Part shown: positions 17,401 through 60,300 of the stretch, one piece after another
Numbering within the stretch: position 1 is the stretch's first letter
How the letters are laid out: each line of letters opens with the position of its first letter
DNA from: Ascidiella aspersa
Lineage: Eukaryota
Direction: 5' to 3'
Assembly (NCBI GenBank): GCA_963924565.1
Contig: OZ004608.1
Location: forward strand, 32,550,001-32,614,000
DNA: 64,000 nt
Position numbers and translations under genes: made by a program
Notes under the pieces: model-generated
Told to the model about the DNA's origin: nothing
Databases searched by the model: none
What the model saw: only the letters and a program-made list of their open reading frames with translations

Positions 17401-20400
17401 TCAAGGTTCCACTCTGTTATAACTATATTGCTTTAGGGCAGTGTTTCTTAACTTTTTTCGCGGCAAACGGAATATTAGGCGTAAAACTAACAGCCAAGCT
17501 TCTGGCTAATTATATTTACTAAACCTATAAAGAAAAAAACTAAAACAAATGACAGAAAGAATATCACTGCTGTATGGTCTTTAGCCAACAGCTCAACATA
17601 CACTACTTTATAGTTAGGGCACAAAATATTTCATATTAGTTATTGCAGAGTGTGCAATATTTGTCTCTTGCTCTCGCATAGGATTTCCTTATGGCGTGGG
17701 CGGATAGCGTGGTAAAACTATAATGATTTTGCCAAGCGCATTTTAAATGAAAAGTCAAATCGCAAAATCTGCGTTCTTTCAGTTGGAAGCTATGAATTGA
17801 CGGGCTCGCGGTTTTATGGTAATTCCTTACAAGAGTATTTAAATTGTGGGCAATTGATTACCCCCTAAAGAGTATTTTAAATATGAAACTATACGGGATA
17901 ACCACACTAGCATAAACGCTTGTTATTACACCATGCTTGTGTTGTTTTATCAAAAATTGCTACATTTGGAGTGATATAAATTTGTCCTTTTTGCCGAGGG
18001 CAATCATAAAACCTTTGCCCTGTGAAAAAGGCGCAATTAAGCTCTATTAACTTTTCCCGGGTGTAACAGTACTACACAGTTTGTAACAATACAAACCGCT
18101 ATAAAAAGACCTACTTAATAACAAATCTCCCTAATTACCCCACAAACCCCCATCTCAGGTGCACGTGCCCATCGAGGACTTCTACAACGCCCACCTGCGG
18201 TTCACTTTTCGCCACCGTAGCAGCAAAGAGCACCAGGACAAAGGAGAAAGGGACTTTGGTCTTTCATTCGTGCGTCTAATGCGTGAGGAGGGGACCACGC
18301 TTCATGACGGAATGCACAACCTCATCGTGTATAAGGTAAGGTGTTTTACAGAATGAAAGGAACACAAACGGTTGCTCAAAACCAGGGCTGCGGAATCGGT
18401 TAAAATAAACCCGAGTCCGACTCCGGCCAAATGTGCGATTTTAGCGAGTCCCGAGTCCGGTTGCTACTGTACAGTCTATATTTCACCCATGTACTCTAAA
18501 GTCTACATTTTACCCATTTGCATAAACAAGTTGGATTTTCGGCAATCCGCTTATAGAGGTGGCATATAATTCATCAACTCACAATACATGGTTGGAAAAT
18601 ATCCAGCATATGCTATTCCGCCTTTCCAATTTACAGTTTTAAAATTTGGTACTGCGTATTCGCACGTCGGACTGTGGTTGTTTTACATGGTCTTACTCGG
18701 GTACCGAGTTGACTCCGAAGCCCTTATCAAAATATAGTCTATCTATATATAGACTGTTGATACCAGGCATAATATTAAAAGGATAACTGCGCTGGTAATT
18801 ATTTTTGTTCTCCCAACCTTTCGACGACCCATACTGGTTGCCCTTTTTAGGACGAATGACGCCGATTCCACTATTTTTTCTAATAAATTGTCGCCCAATG
18901 TAACTACAGCTATACTATTAGATAACTAGTTGCGGACTTGCGTTAAAAATTGAAACATTTGGCGTCTTTGTTAATAGCTAAGCAGCCACCTAAGACGAAC
19001 CTTTAAAAAATGTACACGGTGAAGCAAAACTACGTCACTGGGCATAAACTTCGACTAAAATCTACCCGAATAGGTCTCGCAATAAAAACGAAAATAAGCA
19101 AAAACTTGCAATAAAAATCAGCAATACAAGGAAAGCATTCAATTAATTATACACACATATATGTGTTCAACAACTGTGATCTAGCCCTTCTGAAGCTGCT
19201 TTTTGACCAACGATTACGGCTTACGTATCATTAGTACACCAAAAAGCCATCTCTGTTAATATTTTGACAAAAAAGAAAGAAAAATAAAGTTTATGTTAAG
19301 GCTTCTGTGGTATCGAAAAAAATAGACTCTTGAATTACCAACTGTGCCTACTTACATCTATAATTACTTTACCTGGTCTAACATTATTTGGACACCAAAC
19401 CAACCAACTATCTTCATCGTAACATTACAATCTTGTAAAATGTCAATTATTGGTTCCATTGCCGGCGCTTTAAACAGTTTATCGATTTGGAAATGCCTGT
19501 ATGTGGGTGGAATATAAGCTATGGGTTGACATTGCACAGTAGCGTTGTTTGATGTGTAAACACGTCGGCATATTATATCAAGTGGCAAACAATACGACCC
19601 TACCAACATCCTATTCCTAAGTCTATATCAAGTGCAGTCTGTTATTTCTTTTTGACAAACTGAAAAGAAAACTAACTGTTGAGTTCTTAAACAAAACTAA
19701 CGACAAGAAAAGCTCATACAACCACTCACTATTATTTAGGCTCAACGTATTTTTTCAGACGAATAACTTTTTTGTTATTTTAAATACAGTATCGTGGAGG
19801 ACGCCAGCACTAAGCTATTATTTTGAAAATAGAGTGTCATATAAAAAAAAAACTAGTATATTATCTCGCCATGGTAATATTTTGTTCCACATTATTCCTT
19901 AACACGATCCGAAATAAATGTTAAAAAGGATCGTTCGAATAATTTGATTCTGAGAACCAATGATCTTAAGACTGTTTATTTATTAAAACAGATAAAACCT
20001 AAAATCATTTCTTAATTTTTTTCAGAAATATATATTTCGCCTATAAGGCATCGTCAGTTTCTTAATTCCCATGAATTCTGAGAACCACTGTTTCTCTTAT
20101 ATAATCACATTCTAACAACCTTTCAATCTCAAGGTCGAAAATCGTCGAATGGAGGCCAATGACGCACGAAAATATTTGACCTTGAACTCGACACGCGAGG
20201 AGCTGGACAACAGTCTGCACTCCAAGGGCAAGGGGGCCGCCTCACCCACCTCGGGATCCAGGGGGTTTAACCCAAGGGCTGAAGGCTTCACAATGAGCAA
20301 GGATTCATTTCAGATCTCAACCCTGGTCTGCTCCACCAAGCTCACGCAGAACGGTTGGTTGCCTTCATTTTAGTTTGGAAAGGCAAATTTGTGTTCTGCG

Positions 20401-38400: not shown

Positions 38401-41400
38401 AGTAAGCATTAGAGGTATATCAGTATACCCATAATACCGCCCGATATTTCGCTTCCACAGATATATCGGTATCGGTTTATTTTGGCCGATACTGCTACAA
38501 AAATACAATGGTTTTTCCTAAAAAACAAACAAATTTCCTATAAAACGGTAAAAACGTGTATCAGTATCGGTCTGAAAAATGAACATTAGTCTACAATGAG
38601 GATGTCCGATAATATCGGTTTGTAGCCGATACCGGAGACAATGTGATAGTGTGTGTGTTCGCCCGATACTAGGGGCGGTATTGGTGCCGATACGATACTA
38701 ATTTAATTTCTATAATTCAGCTTTAATTTCCTAATGAACGTATAGGTTTCTTTGTTGAAAATATATTTAAACAAAATACTCACTAAAAAAACAGAAGATA
38801 ACTAATATTTCTAAAATTAAAAAAAAAAATTACCTAGAATTTTCTAGATTCTAGAAAAGAAAAAAAATTTCTAGAAAAACAAGTGTTTTTATCAAAATTA
38901 AAATCGTTGAGTTTTCAATAAATTTAAGCATATATTGTTCATATTGAACGAATTAGAAACTATTGACATGGTACGAATAAGAAACCAACCATTGATATAG
39001 TTTTACAACAGTTAACGTATGTCCAATGTTGTGAGCTAAATTTAAAAAAAAAACGCTTCACTCGATTGAATTGATGGCTGGACCAGATATATCGTCAGCC
39101 TAATCCACTTCGCACAGTTTGGCTGTAAAATAGTTCCAGGTCAAGTTGCTAGCGTATACCTCTGTTCCCATAGAACTTCTACAAGGACATCAACCGCTTG
39201 GAGATGTACGTTCGTTACCTCTACAAGCTGTGCGACCTGCATCTTGAATGCGAGAACTACACGGAGGCAGGCTTCACGCTGCTACAACACGCACAACTGC
39301 TAAACGTGAGAACTTGTGCCTTCTTTCACATATAGACAGCAAGAAACTAACATCCTTTATACTTACTAATGTTGTAAAAAGTTAACTATAATATGAACTT
39401 GTAAAATCAGGGTTTTTTAACTTTTTTTATTGCAGACTCTTGAAACAATTTTTTTGGTTAGCGTGCACCAGGGTTGGATTGACGTTTTAGGGATGACGTC
39501 ATCGAACAGGTAATCTACAAAACCTGCTGTTTTCAGGCTAACAAATGGAAACTGAAATAAAGTCTAAATAAACTGAGGGAAAAGGCGCCAAAGCATTTTT
39601 TTCATTAAATAATTTTCGTTTGAAAAATTAATTTCTTTTTCAAGTCATACATAAACCACTATTTTAATGAAGCCTTCATGGACTCCCTAAAACGAGTCCA
39701 CGTACACCCCAAGGGGTCCACGGAACCCAATTTAAGAAACCCCGCTCTAGTCGATTATGCTACTTCCATAAGTGTGACAAAACATTTTTCATGCTAATCA
39801 AACTAATAGGTTTTGTTCATTTAGTTTTTCTCTAATATACCTCTATAGTTTAAATTAATTTCAAGGGATTTTCCAACAACTGCTGAACGTAAGCGCCAAA
39901 CGCCCCTGTCATTTAGACACGCAGACAAACAATACGTTTATCCTAATAGTGTTACAATAATTTTGTCTAGTGTTTACTCGATTTCAAGTAAAGTCGAATC
40001 CAAAGTCGATTTTTTTTAAGAAACAAAGACTCCACATCGATTCATCGTATTTCAAAAGCCAATTTTTAAGCCATTAAAGATAATTGTTGGGCTCTTTTAT
40101 ATTGTCAGGTTAAGGCATTACCTCAAAGTCAAGTCATTTCACGGCAAATCCCAATCACTTGTGTTAGTTTATTTCTTCTTTTCAAAGCTTTTGTTGTTGC
40201 CTTTTAAATTGATTTTCACGGCAGCCTTCGTTCATTTAAACTTACCAAGAAGTTTAGTCTAAAATGCTTGGATTGTCGGAAAGATTTTAAAGCGGCCATA
40301 GTAAAAAAGCTCAAAATCATTGCTAAACCATGTTTTTTTACCATTGGTCACTTGAAAAAAAACAACGTTAAACCAGGGTTCTCAAAGTTTTTTGATATCC
40401 CCCTTACAAGCCCAAACTCTGTCAATTGCTATCCTGCAAAAGGCCAACAAGTATTACCTCTTTTTTATGTATTACTACGATGTACCCTGCTGACAGAAAA
40501 TCAAACCTTAAGAAAAAGAGTCTAAAAAAAATACGTGTAACTGCAAATAAACAATATTGCGCCAAAAGCCAAGACTTGTTAGAAACATTTGGATGCGCTA
40601 ATTGTCTGAAAGTTAAGTTTGTTGAGCATATGACCTAGGTATTAATTTTATACCTATGTTAAAGTGCCTGCATTGGTGTATATTTCTTCGGATGTAACTA
40701 TAAATAAACAGAGGAATCAGGTGGTGGCACTGTATAACGACAAATTGTATTGGATTCTCGACAAGCTTTCGCACAGCCGTGCTTCATCAGGTCAAAGTGT
40801 AAAACATTTTATACTTTGACCTGATGAAGCACGGTTGTGCGAAAGCTTGTCGAGAATCCAATACTATTTGTCGTTATACAGTGCCACCTGATTCCTCTAT
40901 TTAGAATTAGACAAATACGGCCATATACAAAGATATAAATAAACAATAGACTTATATTATTGGCTGAATAGACTTTTTACACTACCAATTATTACACTTA
41001 AATAAGCTTTTCGTTTTTAATCCATTTTTCCTCTCCAATTCCTCCCTGGAACATATTTCCTCCCCAAACTAAAAAATCCCTCCCTCCATTTGTGAACCAC
41101 CTTCAAAAAAACATTTCAATGTGCCCTCTAGTGGTCAGACGAGGTGCTGGTGACCCGTCTGCTGCGCTACCGCGACGCCGCCACGCATCGCGAGCTCAAA
41201 GAAGCCCTCTATTACGACATAGTCGACCTGTTCCAACGCGGCAAAATGTGGGAGGAGGGAATCAAGCTCTGCAAGGAGCTAGCTGTACAGCACGAACGCG
41301 AAACTTTCCGCTACCAACAACTATCCGAGATTCTGGTCAGTAAAATTTTTTGTATTTTTAGTGTTTCCGGATAAAAAATATTAATTTAGTGTTTCCAAAT

Positions 41401-44400
41401 TTGAAACTTTTTTTAGTGTTTCCAGATATTTATATATATATATTTTTGGTCGTTATTAACAGGTTTTCGGATAGAAGCCGAAAATTGAGTGTGGTAAATT
41501 GTTTTAATGTGAACTGTAAGCTTTTTTAATCATATTAGTAAAATAACTTCTTTCTCGCCATCTTTAATCAGACTTAAAAATCAACAGAAAAACAAAAACA
41601 AAAGAAGTGATAAAGTGATTAAAACACAACCTCTGCGTATATTATATTTATCAATGTGAAGGCTATATAAAAAAATTGTATTTTTGCAAAAATATAATAG
41701 AACTTTACGACTTCATTGATCAATTAAATTTTTTAAACCAACATACCAAATAAATATTCGCTTTTTATCACACTTTATATAATTTATTTAAAAATGCTTT
41801 GTTCTTGTTTTTGTAGTCGCGCCAAGCGGAGTTGTTCAAGAACATTACTACCACGATTCGACCCGAGCCCGAGTACTTCTTCGTCGGTTATTACGGACAA
41901 GGCTTCCCGACCTTTCTAAGGGTGAGCGCATTAATCGATAACAAATTCTATAGAGCTTTAAAAAAAGCAGAATGTTATCCCTTACTACAAAACGTAAAAA
42001 ATTCCCACGGTCGCGAGTTGGAATCCCAAGAAACAACCTCTCTTCTTTCCCGCAGAACCGGAAGTTCATCTTCCGTGGGAAGGAGTTCGAGCGATTGAGC
42101 GACTTCACAACTCGCATCCTCAACCTGCTCCCCAGCGCGCAAAAAATGAACAACACGTCACCACCTAGTGACGACGTTCTCAACTCGCCCGGAATGTGTA
42201 TCCTTCAAATTTGGCACGTTTACAGAATTGCTGCTTTAGGGCAGAACAGGGGTTGTAGAAATACGTAGTAAGAAGATAAAATAGCATATAGAAGTATAGG
42301 TATCATTTTAAAACGTTTCGAATCTCTATTTATTCTTTTTTTTTTTTGAATACTTTTCTTCTGTATGAGAATTGCTACTGTTTTGTACGTTATTCAACTT
42401 CGCTTAATTCAGTGCTTCTCAACCTCTGGGTCGCGACCCAAAATTGGGTGGCTGTTTGATTTGGTTGGGTCGCCAACCGCAGTAGCTCACATGTTTATAC
42501 TAATTGAGATTGGTTCTCAGCAAAATTCTCAATTAGGAAAATTAAAGAAGCAATGCAAATATTGTAGCCTATAGTTATTAAAATTCGAAATTCTTTATGA
42601 TAATGCCTATTTTTGTTCGCTTACAAGAAGCTATAGTTTTTATTTCGCTCACAAAAAAACGAAAACTCAATGAATGCGGTTTGCCAAGTTTCTGCGTGGT
42701 TTGACGTAGCGAATACATAAAAACAGCGGAAACTATTTTTTTAGGGTCAGATATATTTTAAATACGTGAAAAAATAATGCACCTAACCTGTGTTTTTTTG
42801 CCAAGTTTTAACTCATGAATACCGTAAAACAGAAAAAAGCTGCTCTTTTAGTACATTAAAAAAGCCTGGAAAATATGTAATTAGCCAAGTAATATTTTTT
42901 TTTAATTTTCGGCATCGTTCATAAAACTTAGGTGAATTTCTATTCGATGCCCTTTATTCTTCCGAATACGTTTTCCTTAACCGGATTCCACCTTCAGTCG
43001 TCCAAATGTACAAGGTGATTCCCATCATGGAGGAACCAGCGCACTTTAAGGGCAAGATTGTCGACGATCAAATCCTAAGGTCAGTCGTTTGTCATTTCTA
43101 CGCACATTTAAGCCGCAAAAACCTGTTATAAACACTATATTAATGTACGGTTACATTAACTGAGTAACAATTAATGGTAAAAATTAGCTTACCTCTGTTG
43201 ACACTTTTTTTGGTTTTGCTAGTTTTTAATCGTTTTAATGTAGTTTGCAATACGACAGCTGGTTGTAGGAAGTAAATGTAAATTTTACCGTGTTTAATAA
43301 TACATGATTGTCTTATAGTTGTATCGTCAAGGTTGTTGTTAAAAAAAAATAAAAAAATGTTCTTTTGAAACAAAATGATTAACTCTGTGCAACAATTCGT
43401 TGCTTTGCTAGTCGGTTTTTGCGATAAATAATGTCACCAGAAAGTTTTTCTTGTTCAGTTTCTACAAAGTGAACGACGTCCACCGCTTCAATTACTCAAA
43501 GCCCTTCCGAAAAGGCCCCAAGAACAAGGACAACGAGTTCGCCGTAAGTTGCAGTTATTTAATTTTTAGTTATTTTCTACAAATGACAAGCATATTTTAT
43601 TTAACCTATACGTGTTTTGCAGCTGTTTCGTTTTTGTCACGTTTGTTACACGGATATTTAATATATAGCCTGCCCTCGTTGTGAGAAAGACAATTTTACG
43701 TAAAAGCGAATTGAAAGCGTTATTTCTTTGCTTTTTGTTATAAGTGTTTCTTCTAAAAAAATGTTGTTATGCTCTCATTTCGACGTTCAACATTTACCAA
43801 ACCTTTTTCAATTCTGTTCCCATTTTTGCAGAGCATGTGGATTCAGCGTTTCACTTTCACGACTTGTTCTACACTTCCCGGAATACTGCGATGGTTCGAA
43901 GTCAACAAGTTCTCTATGGTAAGAGAGCGCACAATTTAGGACATCTGCAGTTATCTCGCGCATAATGCTAAAGTATTACACTTAGATAATACTAACTGAA
44001 ATCAATCATTGAAACGTTAGCCTGTGTTATAAGTTTAAATAGTTTGGACAGCTAAAAATCTACCAATATTCAATTTTTGCGTTTTTTAGTCGAGACAATA
44101 GAAAACATATATTTCCCATATTTGTTTTATTACAAATATATATGTTTGGGGACCCACATAAATTTCGATAACAAACACTAATGTGGCATGCGCAAACATG
44201 AAGCGTGCAATAATTTTTATAAAACACTTCAATGGATTGCGACAATACAAATTGTATATATTTTCTAACAAACGCCAATGTAGTACGCGTCCACAGAAAG
44301 AACAATTTTCTTAACCAACCCCAATGTGGTACGCGTCCACATAAAGCTTAAATTTTTCTTAACCAACCCCAATTTGGTACGCGTCCACATAAAGCTTAAA

Positions 44401-47400
44401 TTTTTCTTAACCAACCCCAATGTGGTACGCGTCCACATAAAGCTTAAATTTTTCTTAACCAACCCCATTGTGGTACGCGTCCACATAAAGCTTAAATTTT
44501 TCTTAACCAACACCAATGTGGTATTCGTCCACAGAAAGAGCTTAGTCCCCTTGAGAACGCGATTGAGTCAATGGAGACGAGCAACAGCGACGTTCGACGG
44601 ATGGTGCTCCTGTACCACCGCAACCCCAACGAACCCATCAACCCCCTTTCCATGAAGCTGAACGGGATGGTCGACCCCAGGGTGATGGGTGGATTCTCAA
44701 ACTACGAGAAGGTCGGTGTAAAACTTTTGGAAAGCTTAGATTGTTTTTGACGACAGTTTAAAATCATGGATCGCTCTTGTGTTAATTTTATTCGTAGAGA
44801 AAAGAAATTGATAAGACTATGACGACATTTCTAATTCAGTCTTTTACAAATTACTATCGATGCAGAGGTTTAATTACAAAAAAAGAAATAAAAATGAAAA
44901 AAAAACAGGAATTTGGTAATCGTACGAAAAGTGTAATAGTTGGTGTGTTGTTTAATCCTAAGGATTTGTCAAGCGGCAAATTTGTGGCGTTATTTTCTCC
45001 TTGTACTTTTCCAGGCTTTCTTTGTGGACTCGTATATTAACGAGAATCCAGATGAGCTTCAAAAGATCGCAACTCTCAAAGACCTCATCGCCTCACAGGT
45101 GAACTAATCGCAAGAAAACGTTTATAGTATCCAATAAAGCCTTTTCGAATCCTTAAATATCGTAGATTGTCTTTGGGGTTTGGTTTGCGTAATAATTTAC
45201 CAATAATCTTTGAATAGTGTTTAGCTTTTATTTTATCTGCCGCTTTAGAAAGTGCCATACTGAATCAATTATTTAAACTAATTGTAATAAACAATTTTCG
45301 TGTCGTAATTGTTATAGGCATTTAACCTTTTATATATTGAAATTTTTGAATTTACTTCGTAAAATTGTATTAACCCTCTATTATATACAAGATAAATCAC
45401 CCCTTTTAGTTTTTTATTTACCTAAAGTTTTTTTTTTTATTTTAGTTTTTTTTTTATTTAAAAAATATGGCATGTTTAGTTCACCAACTGTCTTCTGAAT
45501 GTTACTTTGAATAGGGTTTATTACTTAGGTGTTTTACCTATGCGTTTTACTTTATTTTAAAAAGAGTTGTTCCAAACTTTTAGCGGTGACAATTTTCTTT
45601 TTGAGGAGAAGTGGTAGAATTTACTAATTAACAAAGAGCAACGTAATAATAATACGCAAACCAGCTGTTATTTTTTTAGTGTATCGGCTGTACAAGTACA
45701 AGTAAAATAGCACTACAAGAAAAATAGCACTTAAAAAAAAATCGGCTGACAGAGAACTATTGTCCAGTTCTTCTCTATATTCAGAACCCAGAAGCATAAA
45801 AACACCAGTTTCTATAATGTATGTTTTCAACCTTAGATCCCACTGCTTGTACACGGAAATAGCACAAAAATAAGTAAAAAATATCGGCCGACAGAGAACT
45901 GTTATCAGTTATTCTCATTATTCAGATCTCAGTGGCGTAAAAACACCAGTTTCTTTAATGTATGTTTTCCACCTTAGATTCCACTGCTTGTACAAGGAAA
46001 TAGCACAAAAATAATTCAAAAAGGTCTACAAAATACGAGTGCTGAGTTCTTTTCTATATTCAGATCCCAGTGGCATAAAAACACCGGTTTCTATAATGTA
46101 TTGTCCCATCTTAGATTCCACTACTTGCTGAAGGCGTGCGCTTACATGGAGAACTTGCCCCACCAGCACTTCAGCCCTTCCATCAGAATATGGAGACGTG
46201 CTTTGTGGAGCTGAGGGCTAGTGTGGAGAAGAAGTACGGAAAGAAGGTACGTTTTTTTTTATATATAACAGTGATTCTTGAGCTTTTTTACCTCGCGGAC
46301 ACATTTTGCTTACCTACAATCGTCACACCCATCAAAATTTTAAAATAAAAAGTATCAAGCATTAAAAGCTACTTTAACGTTTAATTAAGTACTCGTGCAA
46401 ACGACTGAATGTATAAAAGCTATTACCCTTTTATTTTTTAGTACACGCAAACTAAGATATACGATTAGGTCGTATTAGAGCAATTTACAATTGGTACTTT
46501 CTCTGAAATAGGAAGGTATTATTTAGCCGATAAAGCCTTCTGAACGCAACATTTTCAAACCGGAAAACGATTTTAATTAAATAATTCGTGCAGTCATTTT
46601 TCTTTCTGTCCGTTTTTTTTAAATAAAAATATGCCCTTTAACAAAATAAGAAACAAAAAGTAAAAAAGGGAATAAACTGGACCAAATGTAAACCACTCGA
46701 CGTCTAAAAAATGCCCCTTCTATTCTGCGTAATTCCCCGTTCCTATCGCCCCCTGCCTTACCTCGCAGCCCCCGTTCGACGTGGGTGGCACAGTTCGTCG
46801 ACCCTCGCCCCAACACAAGAGGATAATGCAACAGGCAAGACCGGAGTCTATCCTCTCAATACAATCGAACACCTCCGACATATCTTCGTACGGAGGCGAC
46901 GGGTACGTAATAATTTACTGCTATAAATTCACGGTTGTTTTGTAACTCATAACGGAAACGGGAGCGCGTGGTGTAGGCTTGTTGTAATTGGGACGTACTA
47001 CGAGCCACCTTTCAAATTACGTTAGTCCGTTTGTTCGTATTATTTCCAATAGAGTGCTGTCCAATGCGCATTTGCCAGTTTACATTTTCCGTTTGAAAAC
47101 GTGTTAAATAAATGCTTCTATTGAGTTGTTTTCCTAATAATTATTGTGGTTGTTGTCATGATAGGTACATTATATTTTCCAACGTTTAAATTTGGTCAAT
47201 AGTTATTTTAGTGTTCGGTTCTTTTATGCAAGTTGTACAAAACACGTATAGTGTCGATCATCGTCTAGAACAGGGATGGCTAACCACTGTCCCGCGCCAC
47301 AGATTTTTGATGACCCACTTGTCTCTCTAGAAATACCGAAATGTTATCAATCTTTTTCATGAAAGAACAAATATAGAAAAACAGTTCTTCGTTAGATAAC

Positions 47401-57389: not shown

Positions 57390-60300
57390 ATGGCGACCAC
57401 TGAAATGTCTGGATCGTGGAAATTGGTGGAATCGGAAAACTTCGACGCTTATATGAAAGCTATAGGTGAGAATGCTTTATTTTTTGCTAGATTATTTTTT
57501 ATAAACTTAACCTTGAGATTACGTTGATTGTTTTTGTTCATTGTATGTCATAGAACTACTAAATAGAAAAGGCTGTTTCCATTGTTTAATTTGAGCGTTT
57601 AACAAAAGACTTATAGTCCTACTCTGCACTATAGGATACTAGTTGATTGTATTAAACCTTATCCACGATTTCAGTTATTATCATATCATTTTTTTAGCAG
57701 AATACAAATATCCAAGTCTTTACAACTGGTTTAGTTTCTTACCTTTTTCTAGAAATCCGCTTCTAATATTTTAACAAGAAAACATTCCCTATTGTTTTCT
57801 CTGGGGTATATTGCGCCACTTCAAATAGTGAAATGTTCCTTAGGATGTGTGGTTTATTGGCATCCCCAAACCTAGCAAAAAAAAGAGTGATGGGACCTTT
57901 GCTAATTGTGTACTTAACATCAAGAGTCCAGTGTTTCTCACCTATTTTCACTGCGACTCAAAATCTAAGCGTCAGTATAACAGCAAATCTTTGGCGCCCC
58001 AAATCTCTACACTAAACTTTTTGAAAGTCAACACTTTACAAGACTATTTAGGATATATTTCAAGAATCAATCTTAATAAGTATAACCACGTGAACTACTG
58101 CAGTAGGCGTCCCCAATTTGGGTGGCGACATGAGTTGATTTTTAAGTTGAGAAACACTGATAGTTGAGTTGCGAAACACTGAAATACAGGTTGTCAATTT
58201 ATCGCCGTGTGCCACAATCTCCGTAGTGAATTTTAAACATGGGATTGTCAATGGTATGATAATATTAGAAATGTGAACCCTGGCCTATATAGAAAGAAGC
58301 AGTTTCGTACCCACCAGGGCTTCAGTTTTATAGTTCAGGAAATAACCAATGCAGAATGTTGTTCAATAAATAAATTATGTGACCTATACTTAAAATACCA
58401 AAATTCCCTTTTGTTTAAAATTACCATTACAAACGTAGGCTTAAAAATGAAAAAAATTGTGTGTCACAATCTCCGTAATGACTTTCCGCACTCTCCTTGC
58501 CCAGGCGTCAACTTTGCAATGCGGGCAATCGGCAACAGTGTAAAGTCGACGGTCAGTATTGAGGCGAGGCCGGGCGACGACAATTTCAAGCTTGTTACTT
58601 CCAGCACATTCCGAACACACAAGCATGAATGCGCTGTCGGCAAAGTAAGCGACGAGGAAACGCTGGACGGACGCAAGGCCAAGGTATATGATAAGGCTGT
58701 GGCCATAAGTGACTGATGTGAAATCGATTTGCCTCGACTACCGAAGTAGTAAAGATCCTTTGTGGCCGAAAAAGTATTTTCTTTGTAATTTTAAAGGACG
58801 CAAAATCCCCCAAAAACTGGCAGTCGGTCTGGAAGCGTCTCGTGTTGAAACGAATTGAATAGGGTTTACTTTCTTCCTAGGTTAACTTCTTCCGTTCCAA
58901 AGTATGTTAAGTCAAGTGATTTTTCTATAAACCGCCCAAATTAAGTTAGGAATCGAAAATCAGTTGAACTCTGGTTTAACGAAATATAACATGGTATGGC
59001 AAGAAAAACGCCAGAAAAGCCTACGACAAATCAGAAAAACATGTCATTTCAAAACCACTTGAATTCAAGTTAAATTTCCGCACAAAATTTTAGTCAAATA
59101 AAGAAGCCCCTCTTTTAGCGCGGCCTTTTATCACATGCCCAGAAAAATGTAAATTAAACATACTTTTGTGATTTTTTTTTCAACTGATCCGGCGAGCTTG
59201 TAAGGCACTCGAGCGTGTTACGAGCATTTACGACTTTCATGTATACATCTATTATTCATTCGAACTTCCTCGCACGTTTATTAAAAATTCACGCTTAAAC
59301 CACGTCATTTGTTTTTGCAGACTTTAGTAAACTGGAAAGACGGAGTTTTGGTTCAGGAACAGACTTGGAACGGCAAAACGACGACGATATCCCGTCACGT
59401 GGACGACGAGGGCAGAATGATCACGGTATAAAAAACTTTTTTTCAACTTTTTGAAAACTAACCTGTACGACAGGGGTTCTTAAACTTTTTTTTACCGCGG
59501 AGCCCTAAAATGTTGTTTTGCTTCGCGTGCACCACGGTAGGCAAGACATTTTAGAAAGGACGTCATAATTTGACGTCACAATACAAATAGACTTCATAAA
59601 TTTGCTGATTTCGGTCCAAAAATGTGAAAGTAAACTGGAGTCTAAATACATTCAGTGCAAAACCGTTATATTTTTAGTTAAACTATTTTCTTTGCAAAAT
59701 TGGTTACTTTTTAAATTCCAATAGGCTTTCATGGACCCCCTAAAACTAGTTTACGGTCCCCGAAGGGATTCATGGACCACAGTTTGAGAACCTCTGCTAT
59801 ACGGTAAAGAACGCGGCATTGTTTGGGCAATGTACATCCTTCTGCATTTCGCGCCTATACGCTGATACATATTATAGGCTGGCTGGAGAATAGCGATGTC
59901 GAGAAATGGGAAATTAAAAAGCTCTTATCGAAAAATCGACCGCTGTATTATTACGATGTTTAAATATCATACAAGGGAGTCAAGGTACTTGTGGTTTTCG
60001 CTCTATACATTATTGGATGCAATTTGTATATAATTTATAGATTTATTGCCTGATTTCAGTTGATCTAAGTCCATAAGGTAAACGCAGAAAACGATAACGG
60101 GTAACCAGCATTCAATGAACTAAATATGGAATGCAAACGTTTGCGCTAAACAAATATTGCAAGGGGCCTATATCAAAGGATTGTTGGTTCTTTTTAAGGG
60201 ACTTAAATGTGAAACTTCATACTTTCGGCTAAAATCCTAACTTTCGCAACACTTAAATTCACAACAGATTATAATCGGGCGTCATACGCTTTTTTATGTC

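Follow-up and report, generated by a model that had tools for sequence, protein, structure and literature searches.

The window analyzed here is a 64,000 nt stretch of the Ascidiella aspersa genome (contig OZ004608.1, positions 32,550,001 to 32,614,000), and all coordinates given below are those of the window. It carries a DOCK gene, as stated in the preliminary description of this DNA and confirmed by Pfam matches to DOCK_N, DOCK-C2 and DHR-2 lobe A. One intron of the gene is interrupted by a 223 bp insertion that belongs to a family of Penelope-like elements (PLE). The insertion lies between 12 bp direct repeats that start at 40699 and 40934, and it consists, in order, of an inverted arm without a tail, a 4 nt centre, and a forward-oriented arm carrying a 36 nt tail. 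The features are as follows, with family positions numbered so that hammerhead C3 is position 1:

39306..41131, + strand: intron of the DOCK gene that hosts the insert, with GT..AG ends and flanked on both sides by DHR-2 lobe A exons
40699..40710, + strand: left copy of the target-site duplication (TSD), 12 bp, AT-rich
40711..40803, - strand: left arm, an inverted, 5'-truncated PLE 3' end, untailed, family positions -12 to about 77
40757..40796, - strand: minimal type-I hammerhead motif, antisense in the DOCK pre-mRNA, with one change in loop 2
40804..40807, no strand: 4 nt centre, the junction of two truncated 5' ends
40808..40933, + strand: right arm, a 5'-truncated PLE 3' end with the full tail, family positions -12 to 115
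40815..40854, + strand: minimal type-I hammerhead motif, from sequence, fold and the numbering of PMC4209133
40898..40933, + strand: 36 nt PLE tail, on this arm only
40934..40945, + strand: right copy of the TSD, 12 bp

A near-perfect palindrome of about 197 bp had been placed at 40706..40902. The palindrome itself is real, with inverted-repeat arms at 40723-40804 and 40807-40888 (82 nt, 96% complementary) that extend to 40705-40903 at 92% complementarity when one 3 nt indel is allowed. Its predicted fold has a free energy of -165.9 kcal/mol (z = -26), and 0 of 200 shuffled sequences were equally stable. The extent needed correction: the insertion occupies 40711-40933, and the span claimed earlier includes 5 nt of the left duplication and omits 31 nt of the 3' tail. 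At 40934 the match to other copies also breaks off, both in DNA contigs and in RNA reads. The further proposal that this is a young remnant is only loosely true. The arms differ from each other at 4 of 96 sites plus one indel, six other palindromes of the family have arms without any difference between them, and the left junction of the insert is also spanned by an X2 contig with many differences from the window in the flanking sequence, so the insert is not private to the haplotype of the window. No empty site was present among the 15 joints listed (51 further joints exist).

The preliminary description attributed the palindrome to a PLE and suggested comparing the arm with the genome in search of neighboring reverse transcriptase (RT) and GIY-YIG frames. 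The arm gave 1,875 candidate matches in the 309 Mb genome, of which the best 40 were scored, and its 27 nt core has 396 exact genome matches compared to none in a reversed control. Longer copies place the arm directly after a GIY-YIG frame, in support of that attribution. At one locus (L011) a GIY-YIG domain (PF01541, E 4e-6) is found upstream of the arm, while at another (L031) RVT_1 (E 3e-10) and GIY-YIG (E 2e-7) are present in a single, 5'-truncated frame of 488 aa with the arm downstream. The insert is a PLE with an endonuclease (EN+), RT and GIY-YIG being in one frame joined to the arm repeat. Both frames carry a C-x4-C-x2-C linker. According to PMC8557442, Neptune and Nematis are the clades with a C-terminal EN that are marked by a CX2-5CxxC linker between RT and EN, and by its sequence the linker of the A. 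aspersa family fits this definition. Duplications of 11-14 bp flank 17 of 20 scored loci (30 loci were examined, and scored where an inverted arm adjoins), and most are 12-13 bp. An intact full-length copy was absent among the scored matches, which comprised only the best candidates (24 in one search and 6 in another), and with it the source element and the repeat at its 5' end; nearest to an intact master are the 488 aa frame of L031 and a broken older copy (L036).

Several other PLE-related sequences were encountered. An old copy of the arm repeat (about 80% identical) is present on the minus strand of the window at 1722-1786, and has lost by deletion the hammerhead core that would lie between the strands of stem I. 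Elsewhere, locus L037 (1941-4388) has an open RT and GIY-YIG frame of 816 aa that represents another PLE family, is possibly intact, and sits between direct repeats of about 130 bp at 1606 and 4952. Locus L038 (1655-4602) carries another PLE, with a 713 aa frame between 511 bp inverted repeats that are 99.8% identical.

The hammerhead motif that had been reported on both strands was recovered by pattern search at 40821-40847 (+) and 40790-40764 (-), although the loose pattern is by itself not significant in the window (3 matches versus 1.25 expected). On the + strand, stem I is formed by 40815-40820 and 40849-40854, and encloses the core (40821-40827), an extra A (40828), stem II (40829-40840), GAAA (40841-40844), a palindromic AGCU (40844-40847) and U17 (40848), with a predicted cut site at 40848/40849. 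The minimum free energy fold of the isolated right arm contains a stem I of 6 bp, two of them G-U, and a stem II of 4 bp. In PMC4209133 the defining features of the PLE minimal hammerhead are a base inserted between 9 and 10.1, the pair G10.1-C11.1, and palindromic positions 15.2-16.2. The motif of the insert has an intact core, G10.1-C11.1, an extra base after A9, a palindromic 15.1-16.1 and H at position 17. The type-I core, extra base, G10.1-C11.1 and palindromic 15.2-16.2 are thus held in common with the motifs of metazoan PLE pseudo-LTRs (pLTRs) in that study, as is the lack of a monomer helix III. Differences from the published examples are a helix II of 4 bp, compared to 7-8 bp in Schistosoma, and the spacing of opposite-strand copies, which are only about 30 nt apart in the DOCK intron while the pairs also reported in PMC4209133 are about 100-700 bp apart. 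A scan with the Rfam hammerhead models, one of the checks proposed earlier, returned no match at E <= 10 on a single arm. Rfam matches over the palindrome were to miRNA models; these are generic hairpin matches below gathering scores and were discarded.

Two features of the motif had been thought to indicate weak monomer activity. The first, the extra A, is present, but PLE minimal hammerheads in general conserve it (PMC4209133), and it is not damage to the copy in the DOCK intron. The same insertion moderately lowers the rate of a viroid hammerhead (reviewed in PMC3705267), so weak activity of the motif is plausible, with the extra A as a trait of the class. PLE minimal hammerheads are reported to be inactive as monomers and of low activity as dimers (Cervera and De la Pena 2014, PMC4209133). 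The second, U17, is also present; it is invariant within the family, with 0 of 77 changed, and it recurs in 10 of the 24 motifs of a cross-family set, which were drawn from 20 regions hand-picked to span families. Position 17 is U, C or A in these 24 motifs, never G. Nothing on U17 was found in PMC1636495.

The preliminary description had pointed to conservation of the core and covariation of the stems. Pairing of the stems is kept across families, and core and stems change less than the flanks within the family. Across the 24 cross-family motifs, stem I averages 3.3 bp (0.65 when shuffled) and stem II 3.25 bp (0.66 when shuffled). Within the family, 62 of 2218 core and stem cells are changed, compared to 194 of 3358 in the flanks, where the cells are not independent and subfamily-diagnostic sites inflate the flank figure. 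The minimal-hammerhead pattern has 5,884 matches genome-wide versus 72 in the control, and a palindromic 15.1-16.1 is present in about 90 of the first 100 matches listed (counted by hand). Among the genome matches listed ACGU predominates, and the AGCU form is in the minority. A second minimal hammerhead, of another family, is found on the minus strand of the window at 20032-20057, with a 3 bp stem II, a palindromic AUAU and A17, and resembles many of the genome-wide pattern matches.

The motif is predicted to be silent in the DOCK pre-mRNA, fully paired to its antisense arm. It had been proposed that the + copy would be sequestered in a hairpin by its own antisense arm, and an equilibrium folding model agrees, giving stem II a probability of about 1e-17 in every + strand pre-mRNA prefix that holds it. 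The improbability of stem II stems from the order of transcription: the antisense arm is made first, and would pair with the sense motif as the latter emerges. Since each strand carries a single sense motif, no dimer is possible in cis. The hammerhead at this site is therefore likely to be inert, as far as folding models can tell, and if the motif has a function, it is likely exerted in the RNA of the parent element.

RNA reads from one same-species run, of which about 6% was read, gave a depth of 3-5 over the DOCK exons and zero over long unique parts of the intron. Over the element the depth rises to 60 and in both directions, and 324 of 328 reads fit only partly; such bidirectional and mostly partial matches are likely to come from other copies and are not assignable to the DOCK locus. 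No pile-up of read starts or ends was listed, and a fragmented library is not expected to reveal one. These data bear on the idea that the palindrome is a hairpin co-opted for the regulation of DOCK, whether by editing, as a source of small RNA or as a splicing switch. A near-perfect duplex of about 95 bp within an intron of an expressed gene, with its left junction also found in a divergent haplotype, is what such a hairpin would look like. However, the same layout recurs at many unrelated loci, the arms have diverged at 4 of 96 sites, and among the RNA differences over the insert the transitions are in balance, with counts of 11 for A>G, 12 for C>T and 11 for G>A and no bias toward editing, reads from other copies being mixed in. 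We consider co-option very improbable.

Other features of the window were also noted. The same intron contains further high-copy repeats, recognized by contig depth, at 39668-39741 and 40408-40630. Downstream in the DOCK gene there is a tandem array of about seven copies of a 48 bp unit (44212-44545). The window also has two direct copies of about 141 bp that are 87% identical (45734-46000), and an exon-like stretch (58505-58644) whose translation seems to resemble a fatty-acid-binding protein.

The ends of family members were tallied for 97 distinct arms. A motif that lies downstream of the ribozyme was located at 466 places, and the arms come from the first 100 of these, on contigs C1-C2 only. 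The 3' ends are bimodal, with 53 short, 3 intermediate and 41 long. Where an arm has an inverted partner, the two are long and short in 47 of 50 cases, short and short in 3 and never long and long, a pair possibly counting twice; in a partly overlapping earlier set, 26 of 30 pairs likewise combined a long arm with a short one, and no pair was long/long. The 3' end of each arm adjoins a copy of the duplication at one of two preferred positions. A one-sided PLE tail has already been published (PMC8557442, Figure 2 legend). Many pairs show unequal 5' truncation, for example -66/20, -727/-357 and -38/27, while the insert in the DOCK intron is -12/-12. Cleavage of the template would place copy starts at +29, the hammerhead cut site, and the absence of such starts was assessed from the genomic 5' ends: none of the 97 arms begins there, and two begin at +27. 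By comparison, of the 70 arms that extend beyond position 0, 33 have their 5' end between -20 and -1, a short distance upstream of the ribozyme, and the DOCK insert falls in this cluster. The rate of 5' ends in this interval is 3.0% per nt; within the motif it is 0.6% (p 7e-8), and farther upstream 1.4% (p 0.013). These values are affected by the imprecision of local-alignment ends in T-rich sequence and by some copies being duplicates of one another. This hotspot was not met in the literature passages surveyed.

The variability of ends also decides against a MITE or foldback DNA transposon whose terminal inverted repeats would be the arms, with the likeness to a hammerhead due to chance. The insert is short, non-coding, palindromic and high in copy number, and has a TSD, all as in a MITE, but its ends are asymmetrical, with the tail on one side only, 5' ends vary widely and single-arm copies are common in the family. 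In addition, the arm is continuous with an RT and GIY-YIG frame, and the motif type is both far above its control (5,884 versus 72) and paired in its stems across families. The linkage seen at L031 refutes this explanation, which we regard as having almost no chance of being correct. Animal non-LTR retrozymes (PMC7229834; 10.64898/2026.07.22.740005) were also considered, and these share small, non-coding hammerhead units related to PLE pLTRs. They are direct tandem repeats able to cleave as dimers, whereas the two units of the DOCK insert are inverted and each strand has a single sense motif, and the assignment was rejected on this ground.

The insert is best described as a 223 bp, 5'-truncated, head-to-head insertion of an RT and GIY-YIG PLE, formed likely by two nicks that each primed a cDNA, and with a hammerhead that is predicted to be inert; we give this reading a probability of about 0.9. 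In such a scheme a staggered cut of 12 bp would be made, and each of the two nicks would prime a short cDNA. We infer that one cDNA began at the end of the tail and the other about 36 nt inside, and that each came to a halt about 12 nt beyond the ribozyme before the two were joined at the centre. Two primings, one per nick, would give the head-to-head layout between duplications. There is a precedent in an anole PLE protein, which cuts the two strands of its target and extends both, using two start sites that delimit the tail (PMC11167929).

The inverted arm of a PLE could also arise from one cDNA, by fold-back self-priming or a template switch, and Arkhipova et al. (PMC3846280) put forward self-priming on an antisense template for rotifer PLE palindromes. 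Fold-back accounts for variants common to both arms, and for the near-symmetric truncation of the DOCK insert. One such variant, G53, occurs in 4 of 94 arms, two of which are the two arms of this insert, and the sharing of a rare variant suggests that both were likely copied from one template or were later homogenized. On the other hand, the unequal arms of many pairs fit two priming events more simply, as do arm 3' ends that abut the duplication copies at two preferred positions. We therefore see the single-cDNA route as possible but rather unlikely. A bolder extension of the two-priming scheme is that family members record the integration process itself, with a dimeric enzyme making two cDNAs, each primed at its own nick, from two fixed start sites, so that a tailed arm is always paired with an untailed one, and the hammerhead marking where synthesis ends without any cutting of the template. 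This proposal is speculative, and would, if true, mean that the RT rarely halts inside the hammerhead and does so about 5x more often in the 20 nt upstream, so that ribozyme-bearing palindromes are mass-produced.

Compared to known C-terminal EN+ PLEs (Penelope, and Adineta Pen2/Pen2a in PMC3846280; scheme in PMC8557442), the family shares the head-to-head inverted, 5'-truncated copy, a tail of 30-40 bp at one end, a short TSD, and the order of RT followed by GIY-YIG. Descriptions of the PLE tail are given in PMC3846280, PMC8557442 and PMC11167929. The family differs in that only about 90 + 126 nt, all of it non-coding, is left in the DOCK insert, in that the TSDs are mostly 12-13 bp and not the 8-10 bp of the rotifer examples (PMC3846280), and in that neither tandem direct pLTRs nor an intact master were found among the scored matches of the family. 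The closest experimental parallel is PAc, the Poseidon element of Anolis (Frangieh et al. 2024, PMC11167929), which has in common the AT-rich targets and a tail bounded by two preferred 3' ends. In that system, insertion in vitro did not require cleavage, and the ribozyme site was free of RNA read ends; the absence of genomic 5' ends at +29 (0 of 97) agrees with these findings, the evidence being RNA reads in PAc and genomic 5' ends in A. aspersa. Poseidon lacks a zinc-finger-like linker, while the A. aspersa family has one, and the ORF of PAc starts at stem II (PMC11167929), while the core ATG of the family opens a frame of only 26 codons.

The insert in the DOCK intron is likely an ordinary, truncated, head-to-head PLE with a known type of minimal hammerhead, and inert mobile DNA. 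The locus itself is of little weight. The counts from its family, namely the restriction of the tail to exactly one arm, the lack of 5' ends at the cut site and their hotspot just upstream of the ribozyme, bear on how the inverted repeats and tails of PLEs are formed and on the role of the hammerhead, and these patterns are testable with the existing in vitro PLE system.
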